A stretch of 29,413 nucleotides of DNA. It comes from an archaeon. GTDB taxonomy: Archaea; Iainarchaeota; Iainarchaeia; Iainarchaeales; CSSED10-239. How positions within the stretch are numbered: the stretch's first letter is position 1; each line of letters begins with the position of its first letter. Under the pieces are notes generated by a model. That model was not told the origin of the DNA and made no database searches. It worked only from the letters and a program-made list of their open reading frames with translations. The position numbers and the translations under genes are program-made. Where the stretch lies: NCBI GenBank assembly GCA_035387745.1, contig DAOOON010000001.1, positions 1-29,413 on the forward strand, read 5' to 3'. Shown piece by piece: positions 1-28,141 of this stretch.

Positions 1-2
1 GT

Positions 3-371
3 GTAAATACAGCAAATGAATTGGTTAATCAAAAATGTGATAAAGCAACAATTCAGATTACTGATTGTGTAATTAATGATGATGGTAATGTCGTGCTTAC
101 TATAAAAAACACCAGTTCTCAGTATAATTATGATATATCAGATGCTTTTTTAGTTTCTATATATAACGATTCTGGCACAATGGATATAGAAAAAGAAATA
201 ACCTTGTCTTCAGGTACTTGGGACGGTCTAGAGGGGGGAGAGACAATTATGGCAAATATTGAGCCAACAACGTCAGCCCTAACAGAAGATTCTGGGGCTT
301 GGATTAATGTGACTTTAAGGTCCACAATATGCCCTTTAGCAGCAACCACCTATTATGGGTGCCATAGATAA
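3..371 (+). CDS. Type IV pilin-like protein, C-terminal part (5' end outside window)
   Basis: The frame is open from nt 3 back to the window edge, so the TTG at 21 is probably internal. The translation aligns with the three downstream paralogues. It has a C-x9-C pair (KCDKATIQITDC), a KNTSS sequon and a C-terminal LRSTICPLAATTYYGC that matches their V-RS-x-x-C...C ending. Confidence 0.7.
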   Translation, partial: VNTANELVNQKCDKATIQITDCVINDDGNVVLTIKNTSSQYNYDISDAFLVSIYNDSGTMDIEKEITLSSGTWDGLEGGETIMANIEPTTSALTEDSGAWINVTLRSTICPLAATTYYGCHR

Positions 372-372
372 G

Positions 373-382
373 CTTTATATAT
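373..382 (+). promoter_or_regulatory. TATA-box-like element upstream of pilin gene 434
   Basis: CTTTATATAT lies in the 62-nt AT-rich spacer, about 55 nt upstream of the ATG. This fits a short leader carrying the SD at 420-426. The whole spacer is AT-rich, so the exact box is uncertain. Confidence 0.35.
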
Positions 383-419
383 GTTTTTATTAATAATATA
401 ATTAATATTTTTAATATTT

Positions 420-426
420 AAGGAGG
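420..426 (+). promoter_or_regulatory. Shine-Dalgarno ribosome-binding site for pilin gene 434
   Basis: AAGGAGG sits 7 nt upstream of the ATG at 434. It is the strongest SD match I saw in the window. Confidence 0.6.
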
Positions 427-433
427 ATATAAA

Positions 434-553
434 ATGAATTTTAAAAAGAAAGCAATAGAACCAATAGTTGCAACAATTCTTTTGGTTGTAGTTGCAGTTA
501 TTTTAGTCACCATTGTTCTTGCATGGGGTAAGAATTTCACAACTGGTGGTTTA
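434..553 (+). repeat. Conserved 5' pilin module, copy 1 (pairs with 907-1026)
   Basis: These 120 nt encode 40 aa identical to copy 2. The two copies differ at 14 positions, all synonymous third-codon sites. Confidence 0.9.
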
Positions 554-892
554 AATGAAGCAGGCGCTATAACAAGCGATGCTTGTAAAGGCGCAACATT
601 GTCTTTAGAAAGTTGTGATTGGAATTCTGATACAAACAAAGTCGTATTCACATTAAAGAACACAAGCGACACATACACCTTTGATGTTAATGGTTTTTAC
701 ATTAATGTAGCAGACAGTTCAACGGTTACAGAATCAGATTTAGATAATGTTTCTTCAACTACAGCTTTAGGCCCTGGTGCAAGTTTAGTTGAAGATATTA
801 CAGTATCAGACATAGTAGCAACAAAAGTAAAATTAAACGTGCGTTCAATTACTTGTCCAACCACAGCAGTAAGCGAACTGGAATGTAGTTAA
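434..892 (+). CDS. Archaeal type IV pilin (Pilin_N/DUF1628-type N-terminus), four-Cys scaffold paralogue
   Basis: The N-terminus MNFKKKA|IEPIVATILLVVVAVILVTIVLAW has a basic stretch, a small residue and a roughly 22-aa hydrophobic helix, which is a class III signal peptide. It also has a C-x9-C pair, a KNTS sequon, a C-terminal VRSITCPTTAVSELEC and several N-x-S/T sequons. Confidence 0.8.
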   Translation: MNFKKKAIEPIVATILLVVVAVILVTIVLAWGKNFTTGGLNEAGAITSDACKGATLSLESCDWNSDTNKVVFTLKNTSDTYTFDVNGFYINVADSSTVTESDLDNVSSTTALGPGASLVEDITVSDIVATKVKLNVRSITCPTTAVSELECS

Positions 893-906
893 AAGAGGTA
901 AAAAAC

Positions 907-1026
907 ATGAATTTTAAGAAGAAAGCAATAGAACCAATAGTTGCAACAATTCTTTTAGTTGTAGTTGCTGTAATATTGGTAACGATAGTTCTTGCATGGG
1001 GTAAAAATTTTACAACCGGCGGATTA
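907..1026 (+). repeat. Conserved 5' pilin module, copy 2
   Basis: See 434-553. Codon-by-codon comparison gives 0 non-synonymous and 14 synonymous differences. Confidence 0.9.
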
Positions 1027-1377
1027 GATGAAGCAAATAACTTAACAAACGATAGTTGTGCTGGTGCAACCATTTCACTACAAAGTTGTGATTGGAATAG
1101 TACTTCAGAAGTTGCAACACTTTTGATAAAAAACACAAGCAGTACCTATACCATAGCTGCAGATGATTTATCCTGTAATGTTACAGACGATTCAAATGCA
1201 TTAAATAATCATCAAACTATACCGACTGCAACAACAGCAGCAATACTTCCTGGAGCATCAATATCAACAACTTGTACAGCATCTTCATTAGCAGCAGCTG
1301 CAACAAAAGTTACGGTGAATGTTAGGTCAGAGACCTGTCCAACAACAGCAGTAAGCGAAATAAAAGGTTGTTCATAG
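907..1377 (+). CDS. Archaeal type IV pilin paralogue (four-Cys scaffold plus two extra Cys)
   Basis: The first 40 aa are identical to ORF 434. It has the same C-x9-C pair, KNTSS sequon and VRSETCPTTAVSEIKGC ending. The central part is a divergent Ala/Thr-rich core. Confidence 0.8.
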   Translation: MNFKKKAIEPIVATILLVVVAVILVTIVLAWGKNFTTGGLDEANNLTNDSCAGATISLQSCDWNSTSEVATLLIKNTSSTYTIAADDLSCNVTDDSNALNNHQTIPTATTAAILPGASISTTCTASSLAAAATKVTVNVRSETCPTTAVSEIKGCS

Positions 1378-1399
1378 ATCAAAATAGAATTGAAAAATT

Positions 1400-1849
1400 A
1401 TGATTTCCAAAAAGGGGGTGTCACCAGTAATTGCAACTATACTTTTAGTTGTTATAGCTTTAATACTGGTGGGCATTCTTCTTTCTTGGGGTCAAAATTT
1501 TGTAAATAAAAATACTTCTGATGCAGATAGCGCAATTGATAGAAAATGTATTGGTGCAGGAATCACCATTAATAATTGTGACTATAATAGCCTTTCTGAG
1601 ACTCTTACTTTTATTATTGTTAATTCAGGAAAGGTTAATTTCTCTGCAGATCAAAACCTTAGTCTTATTCTAATTGATGCAGATACTAATCTTGTCAATG
1701 AGCATCAAGATATAATTGATGGGAATGCCTTTAATAGAGGCGATTCTTTTAGAATAGAAATTGACGAGTATGTAGCAACAACACCAATAGATGTGGAAGT
1801 AAGAAGTACACAGTGTGTTAATTATTTTGCAAGAGTTTCTTGTAATTAA
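1400..1849 (+). CDS. Archaeal type IV pilin paralogue (more divergent)
   Basis: The N-terminus MISKKG|VSPVIATILLVVIALILVGILLSW is the classic archaeal Pilin_N motif. The cysteine scaffold is retained (KCIGAGITINNC ... VRSTQCVNYFARVSC). Confidence 0.8.
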   Translation: MISKKGVSPVIATILLVVIALILVGILLSWGQNFVNKNTSDADSAIDRKCIGAGITINNCDYNSLSETLTFIIVNSGKVNFSADQNLSLILIDADTNLVNEHQDIIDGNAFNRGDSFRIEIDEYVATTPIDVEVRSTQCVNYFARVSCN

Positions 1850-3378: not shown

Positions 3379-3774
3379 TTAACTATAAACTCCTACTTCT
3401 ATATATATCTTATTATTAGAATTATTAATATACTTTATGGAATTAGATAGAATCTTTGTTTTTTCTGTTTTAAAAGAATTTATTTCTTTCCGGTTATTAT
3501 TTATTATAATATACCCAGAAGTTATTGGAAAAAGCAAAAGATAGTTATTCTCTAAAGCTTCAAGATTATCAATCTTAAGATATTGTGAAGTAATTAAAAG
3601 GTCATTTATTTTTTGCATCTTTAATAATTCAATATTGTTTTCTGTAAGGCTGCTTGAGTTAAGTGTTTGTGCCATTACTATTAAAAGTGAGGCAAAGATT
3701 AGTGCAAAAATTCCGTCAATAACAAATATTTGTCCATTATTTGCATTTTGTAAATTCCAGAACTTTAAAGCCAT
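3379..3774 (-). CDS. Pilin-like protein with class III signal peptide (minor pilin candidate D)
   Basis: The N-terminus is ...NANNG|QIFVIDGIFALIFASLLIVMA. The C-terminus IYIEVGVYS resembles that of ORF 4328-4837 (TIEVIVYT). It overlaps the upstream gene by 38 nt and ends 1 nt before dphB. Confidence 0.55.
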   Translation of the reverse strand: MALKFWNLQNANNGQIFVIDGIFALIFASLLIVMAQTLNSSSLTENNIELLKMQKINDLLITSQYLKIDNLEALENNYLLLFPITSGYIIINNNRKEINSFKTEKTKILSNSIKYINNSNNKIYIEVGVYS

Positions 3775-4168
3775 TATTAAATATCACCCCTCTTTGTATA
3801 GTCATTTCAATCTCTGTTATTTCGTTTTGATAAATAGTTATTTGACCTGCTCTAATTCTGCAGATCTTTTCTTTTTTCAGTTCTTCTTCAAACATCAGAA
3901 ATTTCAAGTCCAAGATATTCTGATAGCACAGGCTTTCATGATTGATTTCTGTAAAAGCCAGATAATTACACTCACTAACAAGCTTATCAATAAATAAAAT
4001 GGATTTTAAGTCATCAATTTCTTTCTGATTATTTATTTGTTCTTTGGCATAATTCTCAAAAAATAAAATTTCGAAATATAAAACAAAGATAAGACACAAA
4101 GAAAAAAACAAAACATCAAGTACTATTGCTTGTCCCTTGTGATTCATATTTCTCCCAGTTTTTTTCAT
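3737..4168 (-). CDS. Pilin-like protein with class III signal peptide (minor pilin candidate C)
   Basis: The N-terminus is MKKTGRNMNHKG|QAIVLDVLFFSLCLIFVLYF. The start could instead be the second ATG at 4147. It lies on the same strand and overlaps both neighbours. Confidence 0.55.
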   Translation of the reverse strand: MKKTGRNMNHKGQAIVLDVLFFSLCLIFVLYFEILFFENYAKEQINNQKEIDDLKSILFIDKLVSECNYLAFTEINHESLCYQNILDLKFLMFEEELKKEKICRIRAGQITIYQNEITEIEMTIQRGVIFNNGFKVLEFTKCK

Positions 4169-4331
4169 TATAATAATTGGTTTTTATAATTTTTATAATT
4201 TCTTTTAGATTCCTGTTTTTTTCTAGTCTTTCTTTAAACTCAAGATTGATATTAATAAAAAATCCAAGTACAATAATAATTATTAAAACACACAAGATAA
4301 GTTCTAAAGTGATTATCCCTTTTCTATTCAA
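4116..4331 (-). CDS. Short pilin-like protein (candidate B), E at +5
   Basis: The N-terminus MNRKG|IITLELILCVLIIIIVLGFF has G at -1 and Glu at +5, followed by a roughly 20-aa hydrophobic helix. This is the canonical type IV pilin signature. It is 71 aa and has a 4-nt overlap with the upstream gene. Confidence 0.6.
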   Translation of the reverse strand: MNRKGIITLELILCVLIIIIVLGFFININLEFKERLEKNRNLKEIIKIIKTNYYNEKNWEKYESQGTSNST

Positions 4332-4837
4332 GTATAAACAATCACCTCGATTGTGTAATTTTTAGGGAAAGTAAAAGTTGTTTTAGAATACGAGGTCTTC
4401 TGTTCAAAGCCAAGATATTTATTTTTAGCTATGCCGTTAGTTATTGTATATCTTTTTATATAAACATTTGGCATTGGTCTTAAGACTATGGTTTTTGTTA
4501 TTTCTTGTAGTTCTAAAAGATTTATTTTTTGTTTTTTATTTGTGTTTATATTTAGAATAAACCATTCTTCTGTTTGGGCGTCTTGGTTTGACAGATAGTT
4601 TATTACTTTAGCATTAATTTGTGCATTAAGCGTTAACTGGTCGTTATTTGGCATAGAAAGTTCTTTTTTAACCATTTCTTCAAAATTAATAGTTGCGCTA
4701 TGCTTTTTTGTGCTTTGGGATTTAACTACTACAAACTCTAAGTTATTTTCAATTCTGCCATTACCAGCTATAGACAAGAAAACAAGCAAAAACAACAGCA
4801 CCCCTAGACTTAAAAAGCCTTTATTTTTTGTGTTCAT
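4328..4837 (-). CDS. Pilin-like protein with class III signal peptide (candidate A)
   Basis: The N-terminus is MNTKNKG|FLSLGVLLFLLVFLSIAG. The remainder looks beta-rich and ends NYTIEVIVYT. It is the first gene of the minus-strand operon running 4837 to 1850. Confidence 0.55.
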   Translation of the reverse strand: MNTKNKGFLSLGVLLFLLVFLSIAGNGRIENNLEFVVVKSQSTKKHSATINFEEMVKKELSMPNNDQLTLNAQINAKVINYLSNQDAQTEEWFILNINTNKKQKINLLELQEITKTIVLRPMPNVYIKRYTITNGIAKNKYLGFEQKTSYSKTTFTFPKNYTIEVIVYT

Positions 4838-7383: not shown

Positions 7384-8130
7384 TTATTGAAACAAAACTA
7401 ATTTAATATATCCTATATATGGTATTTTTCCTAGTTTCTTGCCTTTTAGGTCTTTTTCCTTTATTGGATAGATATTAAGGCACGGCTTTTGAATTGTAAT
7501 TTCGTTATTTATTATTTCTAGTTCACAATCCTGGTCAATATACACGTTTGTCTTGTGGTTGTCTCCCTTTGTTAATAGGAAGGTTCCGTCTTTTGCATTT
7601 ATTTTAACTATAGCTCTGTGTATTATGTCTTTTCCAGTAACGTTAGATGGATAAACAATTATACTATTATTATTTTCTATGCTTTCAAGCAAAGAAATAT
7701 TTTTGTCTCCAATCTTAATATACTCAATTTCTTCTATACCAAATTTGTTTTTAAAAAAGTTAAGTTCTGCAAAGTCTTTAAGGTCTTTGTTTGTAATATT
7801 TTCGTTAATTGTTATTTCTTCAAGTTTTAGATTATTTGCTTTTGTAAGTATTACAATATCTCCTCTGTGTAAATTAGGTTCCATTGATGAGCTATATACA
7901 ATCGCCATAGGCATAGACACTCCAAGTATCCATCCCAGAATATCATAGATTGCTATTGCTAAAAAGAAAGCAAGGCAAATATAGCAAAGCCAATAAATAG
8001 TGGATTTCCAGAAGTCCTCTGGCTTACCAATCCATTTTTCTAAAGCCATGTCCAAATAATTAAATGGATCCAGATAATACCAAAAATTCTTTTTTGGTTG
8101 TTTCTTTGAAGCTTTATTTTTTTTATTCAT
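7384..8130 (-). CDS. Signal peptidase I, archaeal/eukaryotic Sec11 (S26B) type
   Basis: An N-terminal TM segment is followed by SSSMEPNLHRGDIVIL (catalytic Ser box), IIHRAI (His box) and TKGDNHKTN (GDN box). An insertion of about 65 aa lies between the Ser and His boxes. Confidence 0.85.
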   Translation of the reverse strand: MNKKNKASKKQPKKNFWYYLDPFNYLDMALEKWIGKPEDFWKSTIYWLCYICLAFFLAIAIYDILGWILGVSMPMAIVYSSSMEPNLHRGDIVILTKANNLKLEEITINENITNKDLKDFAELNFFKNKFGIEEIEYIKIGDKNISLLESIENNNSIIVYPSNVTGKDIIHRAIVKINAKDGTFLLTKGDNHKTNVYIDQDCELEIINNEITIQKPCLNIYPIKEKDLKGKKLGKIPYIGYIKLVLFQ

Positions 8131-13611: not shown

Positions 13612-14646
13612 ATGAATATTCTTTCTTTACAAAAGGACGGAAAAGTTATTTTTATTCCTCAGACTCTTGAGGACCTCTGGGTTATTAAGTCTATTACTGA
13701 TTTAGGGGATGTTGTTTCTGGTTCTTCTTATAGGCGAATACGCGGTAACGAAGCAGACAACGAATCAACAAGAAAACCAGTCTTTGTTTCTATTGCTATT
13801 GAGAAGTTTGATTTTTCTAAAGAGCTTAATTCTTTAAGATTTACTGGTAAGATTATTGATAGTAAGCCTGAAGAGCTTGCGCCCCTTGGCGAGTACCATA
13901 CTCTTGAAATTTCTCTTTCTAAATCTTACACTCTAAAAAAGCCACATTTCTTCTCTCATCAATTGGATTTACTTGAGAACAATAGTTCTGTTTTTTCAAG
14001 TTCTATTCTTTTGATTGCTCTTGATGATGAGAAGTCAAATATTTTTGAGCTTACAAATATTGGCATAAAAGATATAGCAGTGATTGACTCAGGAAAGCCT
14101 GGCAAAAGATATTCTTCTGATTTTGATTTTTCTAGTTTCTTTTCTGAAATCTTTTCAATAGTTTCAAGATATGATTGTCAGATTATTATTGCTGGTCCTG
14201 GTGCAACAAGATCTAAGCTTTCTGAATTTATTAAACAAAAGAAAAGTTCTTTAAAAATTTTAGAATTATCAATTCAAAATACTAACAAGTCCTCAATCAA
14301 CGAGTTATTCTCTAAAGAAGAAGTTTCTAGATTTTTTGAAAACTCAATAATCTACAAAGAACAAAAGGTTCTTGATAGCTTTCTTGAAAATCTAGGAAAG
14401 AACAATAATAAAGTTGCATACGGTTTACAAGAGGTGTCAAAAGCACTTGATGTCGGCGCTTGCGAAAGCATTATGGTTTCTGAAAAGCTATGGAAGACAG
14501 AACTTGATAAGGTTCAAGAGCTTATTAGAAAAGCAGATATTGTTAAAACAAAAGTGCATATTGTTGATGAAGAGCACGAAGTCTCTAAGTCTTTAAGGTC
14601 TTTTGGCGGAATAATCTCCACTTTAAGATATCCTTTAAGTTTTTAA
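13612..14646 (+). CDS. pelA: Pelota (aDom34) mRNA surveillance / ribosome rescue factor
   Basis: The N-terminus reads GKVIFIPQTLEDLWVIKSITDLGDVVSGSSYRRI (Pelota pattern ..L.PE..DDLW.LYN.I..GD.V...T.R). The C-terminal region is eRF1-like. It is 344 aa. Confidence 0.85.
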   Translation: MNILSLQKDGKVIFIPQTLEDLWVIKSITDLGDVVSGSSYRRIRGNEADNESTRKPVFVSIAIEKFDFSKELNSLRFTGKIIDSKPEELAPLGEYHTLEISLSKSYTLKKPHFFSHQLDLLENNSSVFSSSILLIALDDEKSNIFELTNIGIKDIAVIDSGKPGKRYSSDFDFSSFFSEIFSIVSRYDCQIIIAGPGATRSKLSEFIKQKKSSLKILELSIQNTNKSSINELFSKEEVSRFFENSIIYKEQKVLDSFLENLGKNNNKVAYGLQEVSKALDVGACESIMVSEKLWKTELDKVQELIRKADIVKTKVHIVDEEHEVSKSLRSFGGIISTLRYPLSF

Positions 14647-26902: not shown

Positions 26903-28141
26903 GTGAGTAATATTATGGATGAATCACAAGTTCTATTATTAAAGAAAAAACTTAAAGAAATTAAGACTTACAAAGGCGATGGTACACAACTAATAAGCCT
27001 GTATATTCCTCCGAATGCGGATAGGTCATCTGTTACTAAGCAATTAACTGATGAAATCTCACAAAGCTCAAACATTAAGTCTCAACAGACTAGAAAAAAT
27101 GTTCAAGCAGCTCTAAGAAGACTTACAAATTATTTAAGACAAATAGATTTTAAACTCCCAGAAACCGGTCTTGTTCTGTTTTCTGGTAATGTTTCTGAAA
27201 ATCCTGCAAAAAACGACGTTGTTCTTTTAACCGTTATCCCCCCAAAACCGCTAACTACAAAACTATATTGGTGTGATTCTGAGTTTCATATCGCGCCTTT
27301 AGAAGATATGTCTTTAACTGACGAAGTTTATGGCCTAGTTACTATTGATAAGCGAGAAGCCACTGTTGCAGTTTTAACAGGCAAATCTTATCACATAGTT
27401 GTTCATGAGACTAGTGGCGTTCCTGGTAAGACTAGAGCAGGTGGGCAGTCTTCTGTAAGATTTGAAAGACTAAGAGAAAAGGCTGCGCAGGATTTCTATA
27501 GACGAGTTGGGGAAAGAATGAGTATAAGTATGGTTGATATTCCAAAACTAAAAGGAATAATTGTTGGCGGGCCAGGAATGACTAAAAATGAGTTCTTAGA
27601 AGAAAGCGAATTGGATTACAGATTAAAAAATATGATAATGGGTACAGTTGATACAAGCTATACAGACGAATCGGGAATAAAAGAAATGCTTGATAAAGCT
27701 GGAGAGCTTTTAAAAGATGCAAGTATAATTAAAGAAAGACAACTGATAAATAAGTTTATAGAAAAGGTTGCAACAAATGGTCTTGCAACCTATGGTTATA
27801 ATGAAGTTATTGAAAGTATTATGCAAGGAAAGGCTGAAACAGTTATTGTTTCTGAAGGGTTAGAATGGAGTGTACATAAATATCAGTGCACATCTTGTGG
27901 GCAGTTTACCCCTAAAGTTATTAGAGATAAGAATAAGCAAGTAACTGTGCCAACAACTTGTCAATATTGCGAATCTTCAACAAATGAAGAAGAGGTAGAG
28001 ATTGCAGATCTTTATGAATATCTTGTTGATTTATCGTACAATTTTGGCACAAAAGTGGTTTTAATTTCTATAGAGACGCCAGAAGGAAATCAATTTCTAA
28101 ATACCTTTGGTGGTCTTGGTTCGTTTTTAAGATATAAATAA
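26903..28141 (+). CDS. prf1: Peptide chain release factor aRF1
   Basis: It has the NIKS motif (SSNIKSQQTRKN) and the GGQ motif (KTRAGGQSSVRFERL). The C-terminal domain carries a CTSC...CQYC mini zinc ribbon. The track start is GTG at 26903, and ATG at 26915 (MDESQV) is an alternative. Confidence 0.95.
   Translation: MSNIMDESQVLLLKKKLKEIKTYKGDGTQLISLYIPPNADRSSVTKQLTDEISQSSNIKSQQTRKNVQAALRRLTNYLRQIDFKLPETGLVLFSGNVSENPAKNDVVLLTVIPPKPLTTKLYWCDSEFHIAPLEDMSLTDEVYGLVTIDKREATVAVLTGKSYHIVVHETSGVPGKTRAGGQSSVRFERLREKAAQDFYRRVGERMSISMVDIPKLKGIIVGGPGMTKNEFLEESELDYRLKNMIMGTVDTSYTDESGIKEMLDKAGELLKDASIIKERQLINKFIEKVATNGLATYGYNEVIESIMQGKAETVIVSEGLEWSVHKYQCTSCGQFTPKVIRDKNKQVTVPTTCQYCESSTNEEEVEIADLYEYLVDLSYNFGTKVVLISIETPEGNQFLNTFGGLGSFLRYK

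Follow-up and report, generated by a model that had tools for sequence, protein, structure and literature searches.

There are precedents for pilin paralogues in tandem, for rapid evolution of pilins and for archaeal pilins stabilised by disulfides. Intramolecular disulfides occur in the pilins of Pyrobaculum arsenaticum (Cys80-Cys139) and Pyrobaculum calidifontis (PMC7347861, PMC10334743); the pilin of the latter species, one of the hyperthermophilic Thermoproteales, is also N-glycosylated (PDB entry 8FK7) and has a locus that carries a gene for a KaiC-like ATPase (PMC10334743). At the level of whole systems, System 1 of the archaeal type IV filaments (TFF), which combines a two-gene platform with many pilins, is found in DPANN archaea, and some DPANN loci of subsystem 4A also have two platform genes (bioRxiv 10.64898/2026.04.22.720090). 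Major pilins are prone to tandem duplication, and in Haloferax volcanii any one of the paralogues PilA1-PilA6, which have a conserved hydrophobic N-terminus, can build a pilus (PMC4858521). Type IV pili are prime candidates for partner attachment by ultra-small DPANN archaea, and in the Iainarchaeota they are almost uncharacterised. Here we describe an array of pilin genes at the start of a 29,413-nucleotide stretch of DNA from an archaeon of this phylum (GenBank assembly GCA_035387745.1, contig DAOOON010000001.1; hereafter the window), which is a complete metagenome contig (ENA ERZ761564 NODE_1628). We consider it probable that positions 1-1849 cover the last (3') four-fifths of an operon of five pilin genes, A-B-M1-M3-Z, which belongs to an archaeal type IV pilus in an Iainarchaeota (Diapherotrites) DPANN archaeon. 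The locus is a real yet ordinary archaeal type IV pilin operon and no new kind of system; what is specific to it is a phylum-wide plan of split platform plus A-B-[M]n-Z, one hypervariable pilin whose copy number varies, and a probable double disulfide cross-brace.

An open reading frame (ORF) listing with translations confirmed the four plus-strand genes of positions 1-1849 that a preliminary description, made from the window's sequence, had reported as tandem pilin paralogues (its copies 1 to 4); recovery of the upstream flank from a longer contig of the same strain (L001; related loci and proteins are designated here by L and P numbers) brought the full array to five genes. The features are as follows, with a slash marking the predicted signal-peptide cleavage site and letters denoting the paralogue clades introduced below.

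Positions 3-371, plus strand: 3' part of the B pilin gene (copy 1), 122 codons and the stop codon, the 5' end being lost at the contig end.
Positions 372-433, plus strand: B-M intergenic region, with a TATA-like box, a T-run and GGAGG.
Positions 434-892, plus strand: M1 pilin gene (copy 2), 152 residues, N-terminus MNFKKKA/IEPIVATILLVV, cysteines at 51, 61, 141 and 151.
Positions 907-1377, plus strand: M3 pilin gene (copy 3), 156 residues, cysteines at 51, 61, 90, 123, 144 and 155.
Positions 1400-1849, plus strand: Z pilin gene (copy 4), 149 residues, N-terminus MISKKG/VSPVIATILLVV, the type that closes every array.

In a four-way alignment of the window copies, C51, C61, C141, C151, N76, G115 and R137-S138 are invariant; copies 2 and 3 are 62% identical and the remaining pairs about 30%. 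Copy 3 has the two additional cysteines (C90 and C123) and the Ala/Thr-rich tract that had been reported for it.

L001, a 35.8-kb JGI contig whose proteins are identical to those of the window, extends upstream of the array and reads, in order, a Drg-like GTPase, two T2SSF genes (295 and 270 residues), five pilins (156, 160, 152, 156 and 149 residues) and a convergent tRNA endonuclease. The second of these pilins is the full-length B protein (L001 3810-4292; 160 residues), which begins MKKLKA/LNVLVTTVLLVV. The platform is split into two adjacent T2SSF genes (L001 1568-3278) that correspond to the N- and C-terminal halves of ArlJ/FlaJ and UpsF, and the same order of GTPase, T2SSF, T2SSF and three to five pilins is present in L062, L063 and L022 (T2SSF was called by Pfam PF00482 in L001, L062 and L063, and in L022 by ORFs of matching size in the same position). 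The placement of the platform directly upstream indicates that the array makes up the distal portion of an operon of platform and pilin genes. Elsewhere in the window lie genes for a tRNA-intron endonuclease, Cdc6, PCNA, both primase subunits, GINS, aIF2-alpha, aRF1 and Rad50/HerA-like proteins, a content that identifies the contig as archaeal chromosome, and one neighbouring gene product is 82% identical to a protein labelled Candidatus Diapherotrites archaeon; the 29 kb hold no type IV pilus ATPase, platform or A24-type peptidase gene, and no tRNA or Rfam features. The split platform, the many pilins and the short DUF361-type prepilin-like genes nearby resemble System 1, or clade 1 type IV pili, as represented by the Epd pilus of Methanococcus maripaludis. 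Unlike that system, the locus showed neither an ATPase nor an EpdA-like peptidase, and the array pilins are of the Pilin_N type with a globular head, whereas the major Epd pilin is a headless protein of about 70 residues. Because some subsystem 4A loci share the split platform, assignment to System 1 stays tentative.

All five paralogues carry the N-terminus of a class III signal peptide, in which 25-37 uncharged residues come after K-[GA], in agreement with the archaeal prepilin N-termini claimed at the outset: KKG/VSPLIATILLV in A, KA/LNVLVTTVLLVV in B, KKA/IEPIVATILLVV in M1 and M3, and KKG/VSPVIATILLVV in Z. The NCBIfam model TIGR02537 (cut-off 20 bits) scores Z at 33.5, A at 31.7, M1 at 20.0 and M3 at 19.0 and does not match B, and Pfam Pilin_N (PF07790) matches Z alone among the window copies, with 23.7 bits for a gathering score of 25.2. 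No family model in the NCBIfam and Pfam scans covers the head domain. An archaellum was considered and rejected: none of the window pilins matches an archaellin equivalog model, similarities to the NCBIfam ArlF, ArlG and BasA models are weak (16-20 bits, with cut-offs of 110-230, that of ArlF/ArlG being 110), and the neighbourhood, which holds housekeeping genes only, lacks the accessory set (ArlC/D/E or X, F, G, H, I, J).

The fold of the head was examined in an AlphaFold2 model of copy 2 (M1), built from a 45-sequence alignment (pLDDT 81.7), which consists of a helix (residues 8-46) and seven strands forming a beta-sandwich. In a Foldseek search of the PDB, the best match of this model was 8fk7_A, the P. 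calidifontis type IV pilus subunit (E 4e-5, TM 0.58/0.63), followed by the FlaF and FlaG soluble domains and archaellins, the rest being immunoglobulin (Ig)/FN3-like domains of GH3 enzymes; an hmmsearch of the PDB with the family profile likewise returned 8fk7 (E 6e-8), with an alignment that spans the helix and enters the first head strands. As 8FK7 leads both searches, the modelled head is the usual archaeal pilin Ig-like sandwich (cf. PMC10334743), even at 19% identity, and it also aligns with two-cysteine DPANN pilins of the PF07790 type, so that the head is not the undescribed pilin domain it had been taken for. These two-cysteine pilins, of Woesearchaeota/Pacearchaeota type (P0076-P0106, L041 and L056), resemble the array proteins in length, in architecture, in the first and third cysteines (C1 and C3) and in N76, G115 and P126, and are encoded in tandem in L041 and L056; they differ in lacking the second and fourth cysteines (C2 and C4), and their heads are about 15-25% identical to those of the Iainarchaeota four-cysteine family, which is a narrow offshoot. 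The narrowness of that family is also apparent from a head-only profile search, which retrieved 32 representatives at E <=1e-3 among 1.84 billion proteins; two sequences returned by this search, P0053 and P0064, were spurious repeat proteins and were discarded.

Class III signal peptides could also belong to proteins that build no long adhesive pilus, in which case the array would encode a short pseudopilus, a surface-anchored complex (secretion-, uptake- or bindosome-like) or an archaellum-type, stator-like assembly. The lack of an adjacent ATPase would agree with such a complex, as would the FlaF/FlaG structural matches, the faint ArlF/ArlG/BasA similarities and the presence of three conserved paralogues, A, B and Z, which resemble fixed components. 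However, the top match in both structure and sequence is a filament-forming pilin, the ArlF, ArlG and BasA scores lie far under their cut-offs, the archaellum accessory genes are missing from the neighbourhood, and a fast-evolving, duplicated gene such as M is typical of an exposed major subunit; on balance, a non-pilus function seems improbable, and we favour a pilus.

A hidden Markov model scan of all fetched loci found four-cysteine pilin arrays of 3, 4 or 5 tandem genes in every related genome. When 70 members of 18 arrays are placed in a neighbour-joining tree, they group by their position in the array and not by genome: clade A holds the first gene, clade B the second and clade Z the last, the Z gene falling within clade Z in all 18 arrays. 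The extra middle copies form a further clade, M, which is confined to the sub-lineage of the window and is sister to its B genes; from this topology we propose that the M genes arose through duplication of B. Copies 1 to 4 of the window thus correspond to B, M1, M3 and Z. The M subtypes are distributed patchily, with M1 and M3 in the window strain, M1 and M2 in L010, M2 alone in L012 and M3 alone in L062.

Evolutionary rates follow the same division. Between the window strain and L062, housekeeping proteins are mostly 92-98% identical, with a synonymous divergence (dS) of 0.4-0.7; A, B and Z are 96.8%, 95.0% and 96.0% identical, with ratios of nonsynonymous to synonymous divergence (dN/dS) of 0.06-0.09 (0.09 for B), and M3 is 71% identical, with a dN of 0.19 and a dN/dS of 0.26. 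In all six genome pairs compared, divergence is greatest in the M head, which is 40-65% identical versus 53-98% for A, B and Z; where the array has three genes, B is the most variable of them. Two variants that are nearly identical to M1 (P0001) and to B (P0045) differ from them exclusively at positions >=48. M1 and M3 themselves are identical in protein over the N-terminal 40 residues and diverged in the head: across residues 1-45 they share 93% protein identity at a dS of 0.81, indicating that protein-level selection, and not recent gene conversion, holds this segment constant, and across residues 81-130 their dN/dS is about 1. Judged from these comparisons, A, B and Z are ancient pilins, conserved in position and slow to evolve, that most likely have fixed roles, for example as minor, priming or tip subunits, and the M proteins, whose heads evolve about ten times faster, are most likely the major, surface-exposed subunits.

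This division bears on the proposal, made in the preliminary description, that the copies are equivalent to one another and exchangeable as filament subunits or adhesins, and together make up a module for antigenic variation or host contact, with two local disulfide loops and a freely diversifying core. Within a genome, the paralogue heads are indeed just 16-49% identical between conserved ends, M1 and M3 have their 40-residue N-terminus in common, and the Haloferax PilA paralogues show that pilins can substitute for one another (PMC4858521). The paralogues are nevertheless position-specific orthologues throughout the phylum, and between sister lineages the A, B and Z heads are 94-98% identical, compared with 93-100% for their N-terminal 45 residues, such that in these three the core is as conserved as the ends, an outcome that the preliminary description had itself named as counting against its claim. 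The array has no truncated or promoterless cassettes, and the high dS between the 5' parts of M1 and M3 likewise runs counter to equivalence. We therefore regard equivalence of all copies as unlikely. The idea of variable, interchangeable subunits does suit copies 2 and 3, the M genes, and does not suit B, Z or A; comparison of related genomes gives the same outcome for copy number, which varies for M and is constant for A, B and Z. M1 and M3 may be compared with PilA1-PilA6 to this extent, although the PilA genes are dispersed and lie apart from their ATPase/TadC locus, whereas M1 and M3 sit inside a fixed A-B-[M]-Z operon in which the remaining members do not look interchangeable.

The M genes also appear to have their own expression signals. 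A TATA-like box, CTTTATATA (373-381; such boxes were sought by alignment, the organism being archaeal), stands directly after the B stop codon and is followed by a T-run and by GGAGG, a strong Shine-Dalgarno sequence, 8-9 nucleotides ahead of the ATG. This arrangement is shared by six genomes (the window strain, L062, L012, L010, L014 and L018) whose M heads are 40-50% identical, and on these sequence features the spacer is likely to act as a separate archaeal promoter and ribosome-binding site for the M genes, an arrangement that fits M as an abundant major subunit.

The number of M copies ranges from 0 to 2, and the subtype varies between lineages and apparently also between strains. The variation between lineages (L062 versus L001) is secure. 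For strain variants, we compared L008 1-300 and L007 1-96 with window positions 372-520 and 880-993. In L008, the 3' end of B and the AT-rich spacer known from the window are followed by an M3 gene, whose protein is identical to the window's, and then by Z, with M1 missing, as it is from L062; in L007, the end of a further M-like gene and a spacer of the M1-M3 type precede M1. Both variants could be products of unequal crossing-over, or else assembly chimeras, across the conserved 5' ~100 nucleotides. Many assemblies (L003-L008, on contigs of 1.3-2.7 kb) break inside or beside the pilin array, and the window itself begins within B; such breaks are what strain heterogeneity or repeats would produce.

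One mechanism that may underlie this variation is that the M genes are recombination-driven, strain-variable pilin cassettes, in which unequal crossing-over through the protein-conserved 5' ~120 nucleotides adds, deletes or swaps heads behind one promoter; we hold this only tentatively and consider it rather doubtful as yet. If it is true, the exposed pilus surface would vary at the population level, for partner or host specificity or for evading pilus-binding viruses, and the conserved A, B and Z proteins together with the double-disulfide frame would hold the assembly interface constant. Bacterial type IVa pilins have a C-terminal disulfide loop (the D-region), and in Neisseria the pilin varies through pilE/pilS. 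The array proteins are similar in combining a conserved helix with a variable exposed head, C-terminal cysteines and a hypervariable major subunit; they differ in fold, in the apparent pairing of C3 with C1, and in the lack of silent cassettes and gene conversion. Variation of the pilE/pilS type was accordingly rejected as a candidate, each copy having its full length, a start codon and a signal peptide: we found no silent, truncated or promoterless cassettes in the array and no recent gene conversion (M1 versus M3 dS ~0.8 in the 5' part), which speaks against an antigenic-variation module of the cassette type.

The cysteine pattern of the head is not a product of chance. Among 45 homologues, C51, C141 and C151 never vary and C61 is retained in at least 90%. 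Each of the 63 array members tallied by clade, from 17 genomes, has either four or six cysteines, and the extra pair (at about C90/C123) co-occurs in 5 of the 12 M-type genes. These even counts argue for disulfides. Two apparent exceptions were set aside: a gene seeming to have C1 and C2 only (L016 9930-10472) is cut by a masked run of N, and P0012, which lacks C2, has an odd SRPPWHK stretch at that point that looks like a local frameshift error.

Which cysteines pair with which is suggested by the two-cysteine relatives. In a full-length alignment of 33 pilins, including 26 Woesearchaeota/Pacearchaeota-type relatives from databases, many with precomputed PF07790 assignments, C51 and C141 are invariant, N76, G115 and P126 are nearly so, and 22 of the 26 relatives have exactly two cysteines, at the C1 and C3 positions. 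Because these relatives keep precisely C1 and C3, the disulfides are probably C51-C141 and C61-C151 (C1-C3 and C2-C4) and not two local loops; on the simplest reading of the alignment, the C1-C3 disulfide would be ancestral, linking the beginning of the head with the loop that precedes the last strand, and C2-C4 would have been added in the Iainarchaeota family. The offsets within the two pairs are equal (141 minus 51 and 151 minus 61 both give 90 residues), which fits two rungs between two side-by-side segments. The M1 model places C141 in the loop that follows strand 132-138, and C151 at the distal end of strand 146-151; should these strands form a hairpin, the two cysteines would lie far apart. 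The spacings C1-C2 (9-17 residues) and C3-C4 (9-13 residues) vary independently, which would also suit the local loops proposed earlier; that the two-cysteine relatives retain C1 and C3, and not a local pair, nevertheless makes the crossed connectivity the likelier one. Thus, the four conserved cysteines stand as first described, the even counts fit the disulfides proposed for them, and the pairing of adjacent cysteines is probably wrong.

The four cysteines might instead bind a metal in a Cys4 site. Their invariance would be compatible with such a site, and disulfides could be hard to keep if the habitat is anoxic and reducing, but related pilins have only two of the four cysteines, extra cysteines always come as co-occurring pairs that leave the count even, and the solved Pyrobaculum pilins use disulfides; a metal site is, on this evidence, highly improbable. 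We know of no metal knuckle with the spacing C-x9-C. The likeness to 8FK7 lies in the fold and in the sequence profile; the single disulfide reported for that pilin compares with the two or three predicted here. The low G+C content (about 31%) indicates that the organism with this probable double cross-brace is probably a mesophile.

The sequon-like position noted in the preliminary description is N76, which lies within an N-x-S/T sequon in 39 of the 45 homologues. The residue is invariant even off the sequon, reading N-x-G in the two-cysteine family, and its retention where there is no sequon indicates that its conservation is structural; glycosylation there is a possibility.

Taken together, these observations suggest how the pilus might be made. 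Each product would be synthesised as a prepilin bearing a class III signal peptide, to be cleaved after K-[GA] by a prepilin peptidase whose gene would lie elsewhere; the hydrophobic helix would then be packed within the filament core, with the ~105-residue Ig-like beta-sandwich head facing outward, stapled by C51-C141 and C61-C151 such that the start of the head is tied to its last loop and strand. M genes would be gained and lost by unequal crossing-over through the conserved 5' segment. A role in host contact is plausible by analogy with the episymbiotic Saccharibacteria, whose type IV pili drive host association, and the M gene is a good marker of strain-level surface variation and a target for metaproteomics and cryo-electron microscopy.

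Several points weigh against this reading of the locus as a pilus operon with M as its variable major subunit. In none of the loci examined is there a T2SSE-type ATPase or a prepilin peptidase within ~10 kb of the array. The B pilin and the window's M copies are at or below curated thresholds for TIGR02537 (no match for B; 20.0 and 19.0 bits against 20 for the M copies), and the independently varying cysteine spacings noted above leave room for local loops. The dN/dS of M is 0.26-0.6 overall and reaches about 1 only at residues 81-130 of M1/M3, values that relaxed constraint fits as well as positive selection does. The strain-level copy-number variants rest on short metagenome contigs that are possibly chimeric over the conserved 5' ~100 nucleotides. 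Finally, the product of a short, 71-residue Epd-like gene in the window could, by analogy with the Methanococcus Epd pilus, be the major subunit of this platform in place of M.

This gene belongs to a cluster of four small genes (3379-4837) on the strand opposite to the array and separated from it by three housekeeping genes.

Positions 3379-3774, minus strand: small gene, 131 residues, N-terminus NG/QIFVID.
Positions 3737-4147, minus strand: small gene, 136 residues, N-terminus KG/QAIVLD.
Positions 4116-4331, minus strand: small gene, 71 residues, N-terminus KG/IITLE, with Glu at +5.
Positions 4328-4837, minus strand: small gene, 169 residues, N-terminus KG/FLSLG.

The N-terminal motifs ([KN][GA]/QIFxID, K[GA]/QxxVxD, KG/IITLE and KG/FLSLG), which resemble class III signals, and the synteny of these genes are conserved across the Iainarchaeota. 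Orthologues of the 71-residue gene score 24.5 bits (L021, from Forterrea, which NCBI taxonomy places in the phylum Candidatus Iainarchaeota, kingdom Nanobdellati) and 22.0 bits (L011) for PF04021, which has a gathering score of 23.7; the window's own 71-residue gene does not match PF04021. Three of the four small genes have no match in Pfam or NCBIfam, and the AlphaFold2 model of the 169-residue protein (pLDDT 59) was too poor for a fold search. On this evidence, the four may tentatively be linked as a second, Epd-like (DUF361-type) prepilin set, perhaps served by the same platform, in which the 71-residue protein would be the alternative candidate for a headless major pilin.

Larger proteins (350-620 residues) with the same pilin-type N-terminus and a cysteine pair near residues 120/155 occur in tandem arrays of up to six in the same and in related DPANN genomes (L037 1531-9122; L026 9944-14717; L027 1070-4497; L047 17-3724). 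A further protein, of 519 residues and with many C-x9-C units (L024 9986-11545), was considered as a relative of the head and rejected, since by eye it appears to be a pilin N-terminus fused to RCC1-like repeats.

Two further observations concern other genes of the window. The minus-strand gene at 7384-8130 encodes an archaeal-type signal peptidase I with a long insertion (TIGR02228, 53.1 bits, cut-off 51.85), which is not a prepilin peptidase. Two genes of the eRF1 family are also present, one at 13612-14646 (344 residues) and the other at 26903-28141 (412 residues), which are probably Pelota and aRF1, respectively.

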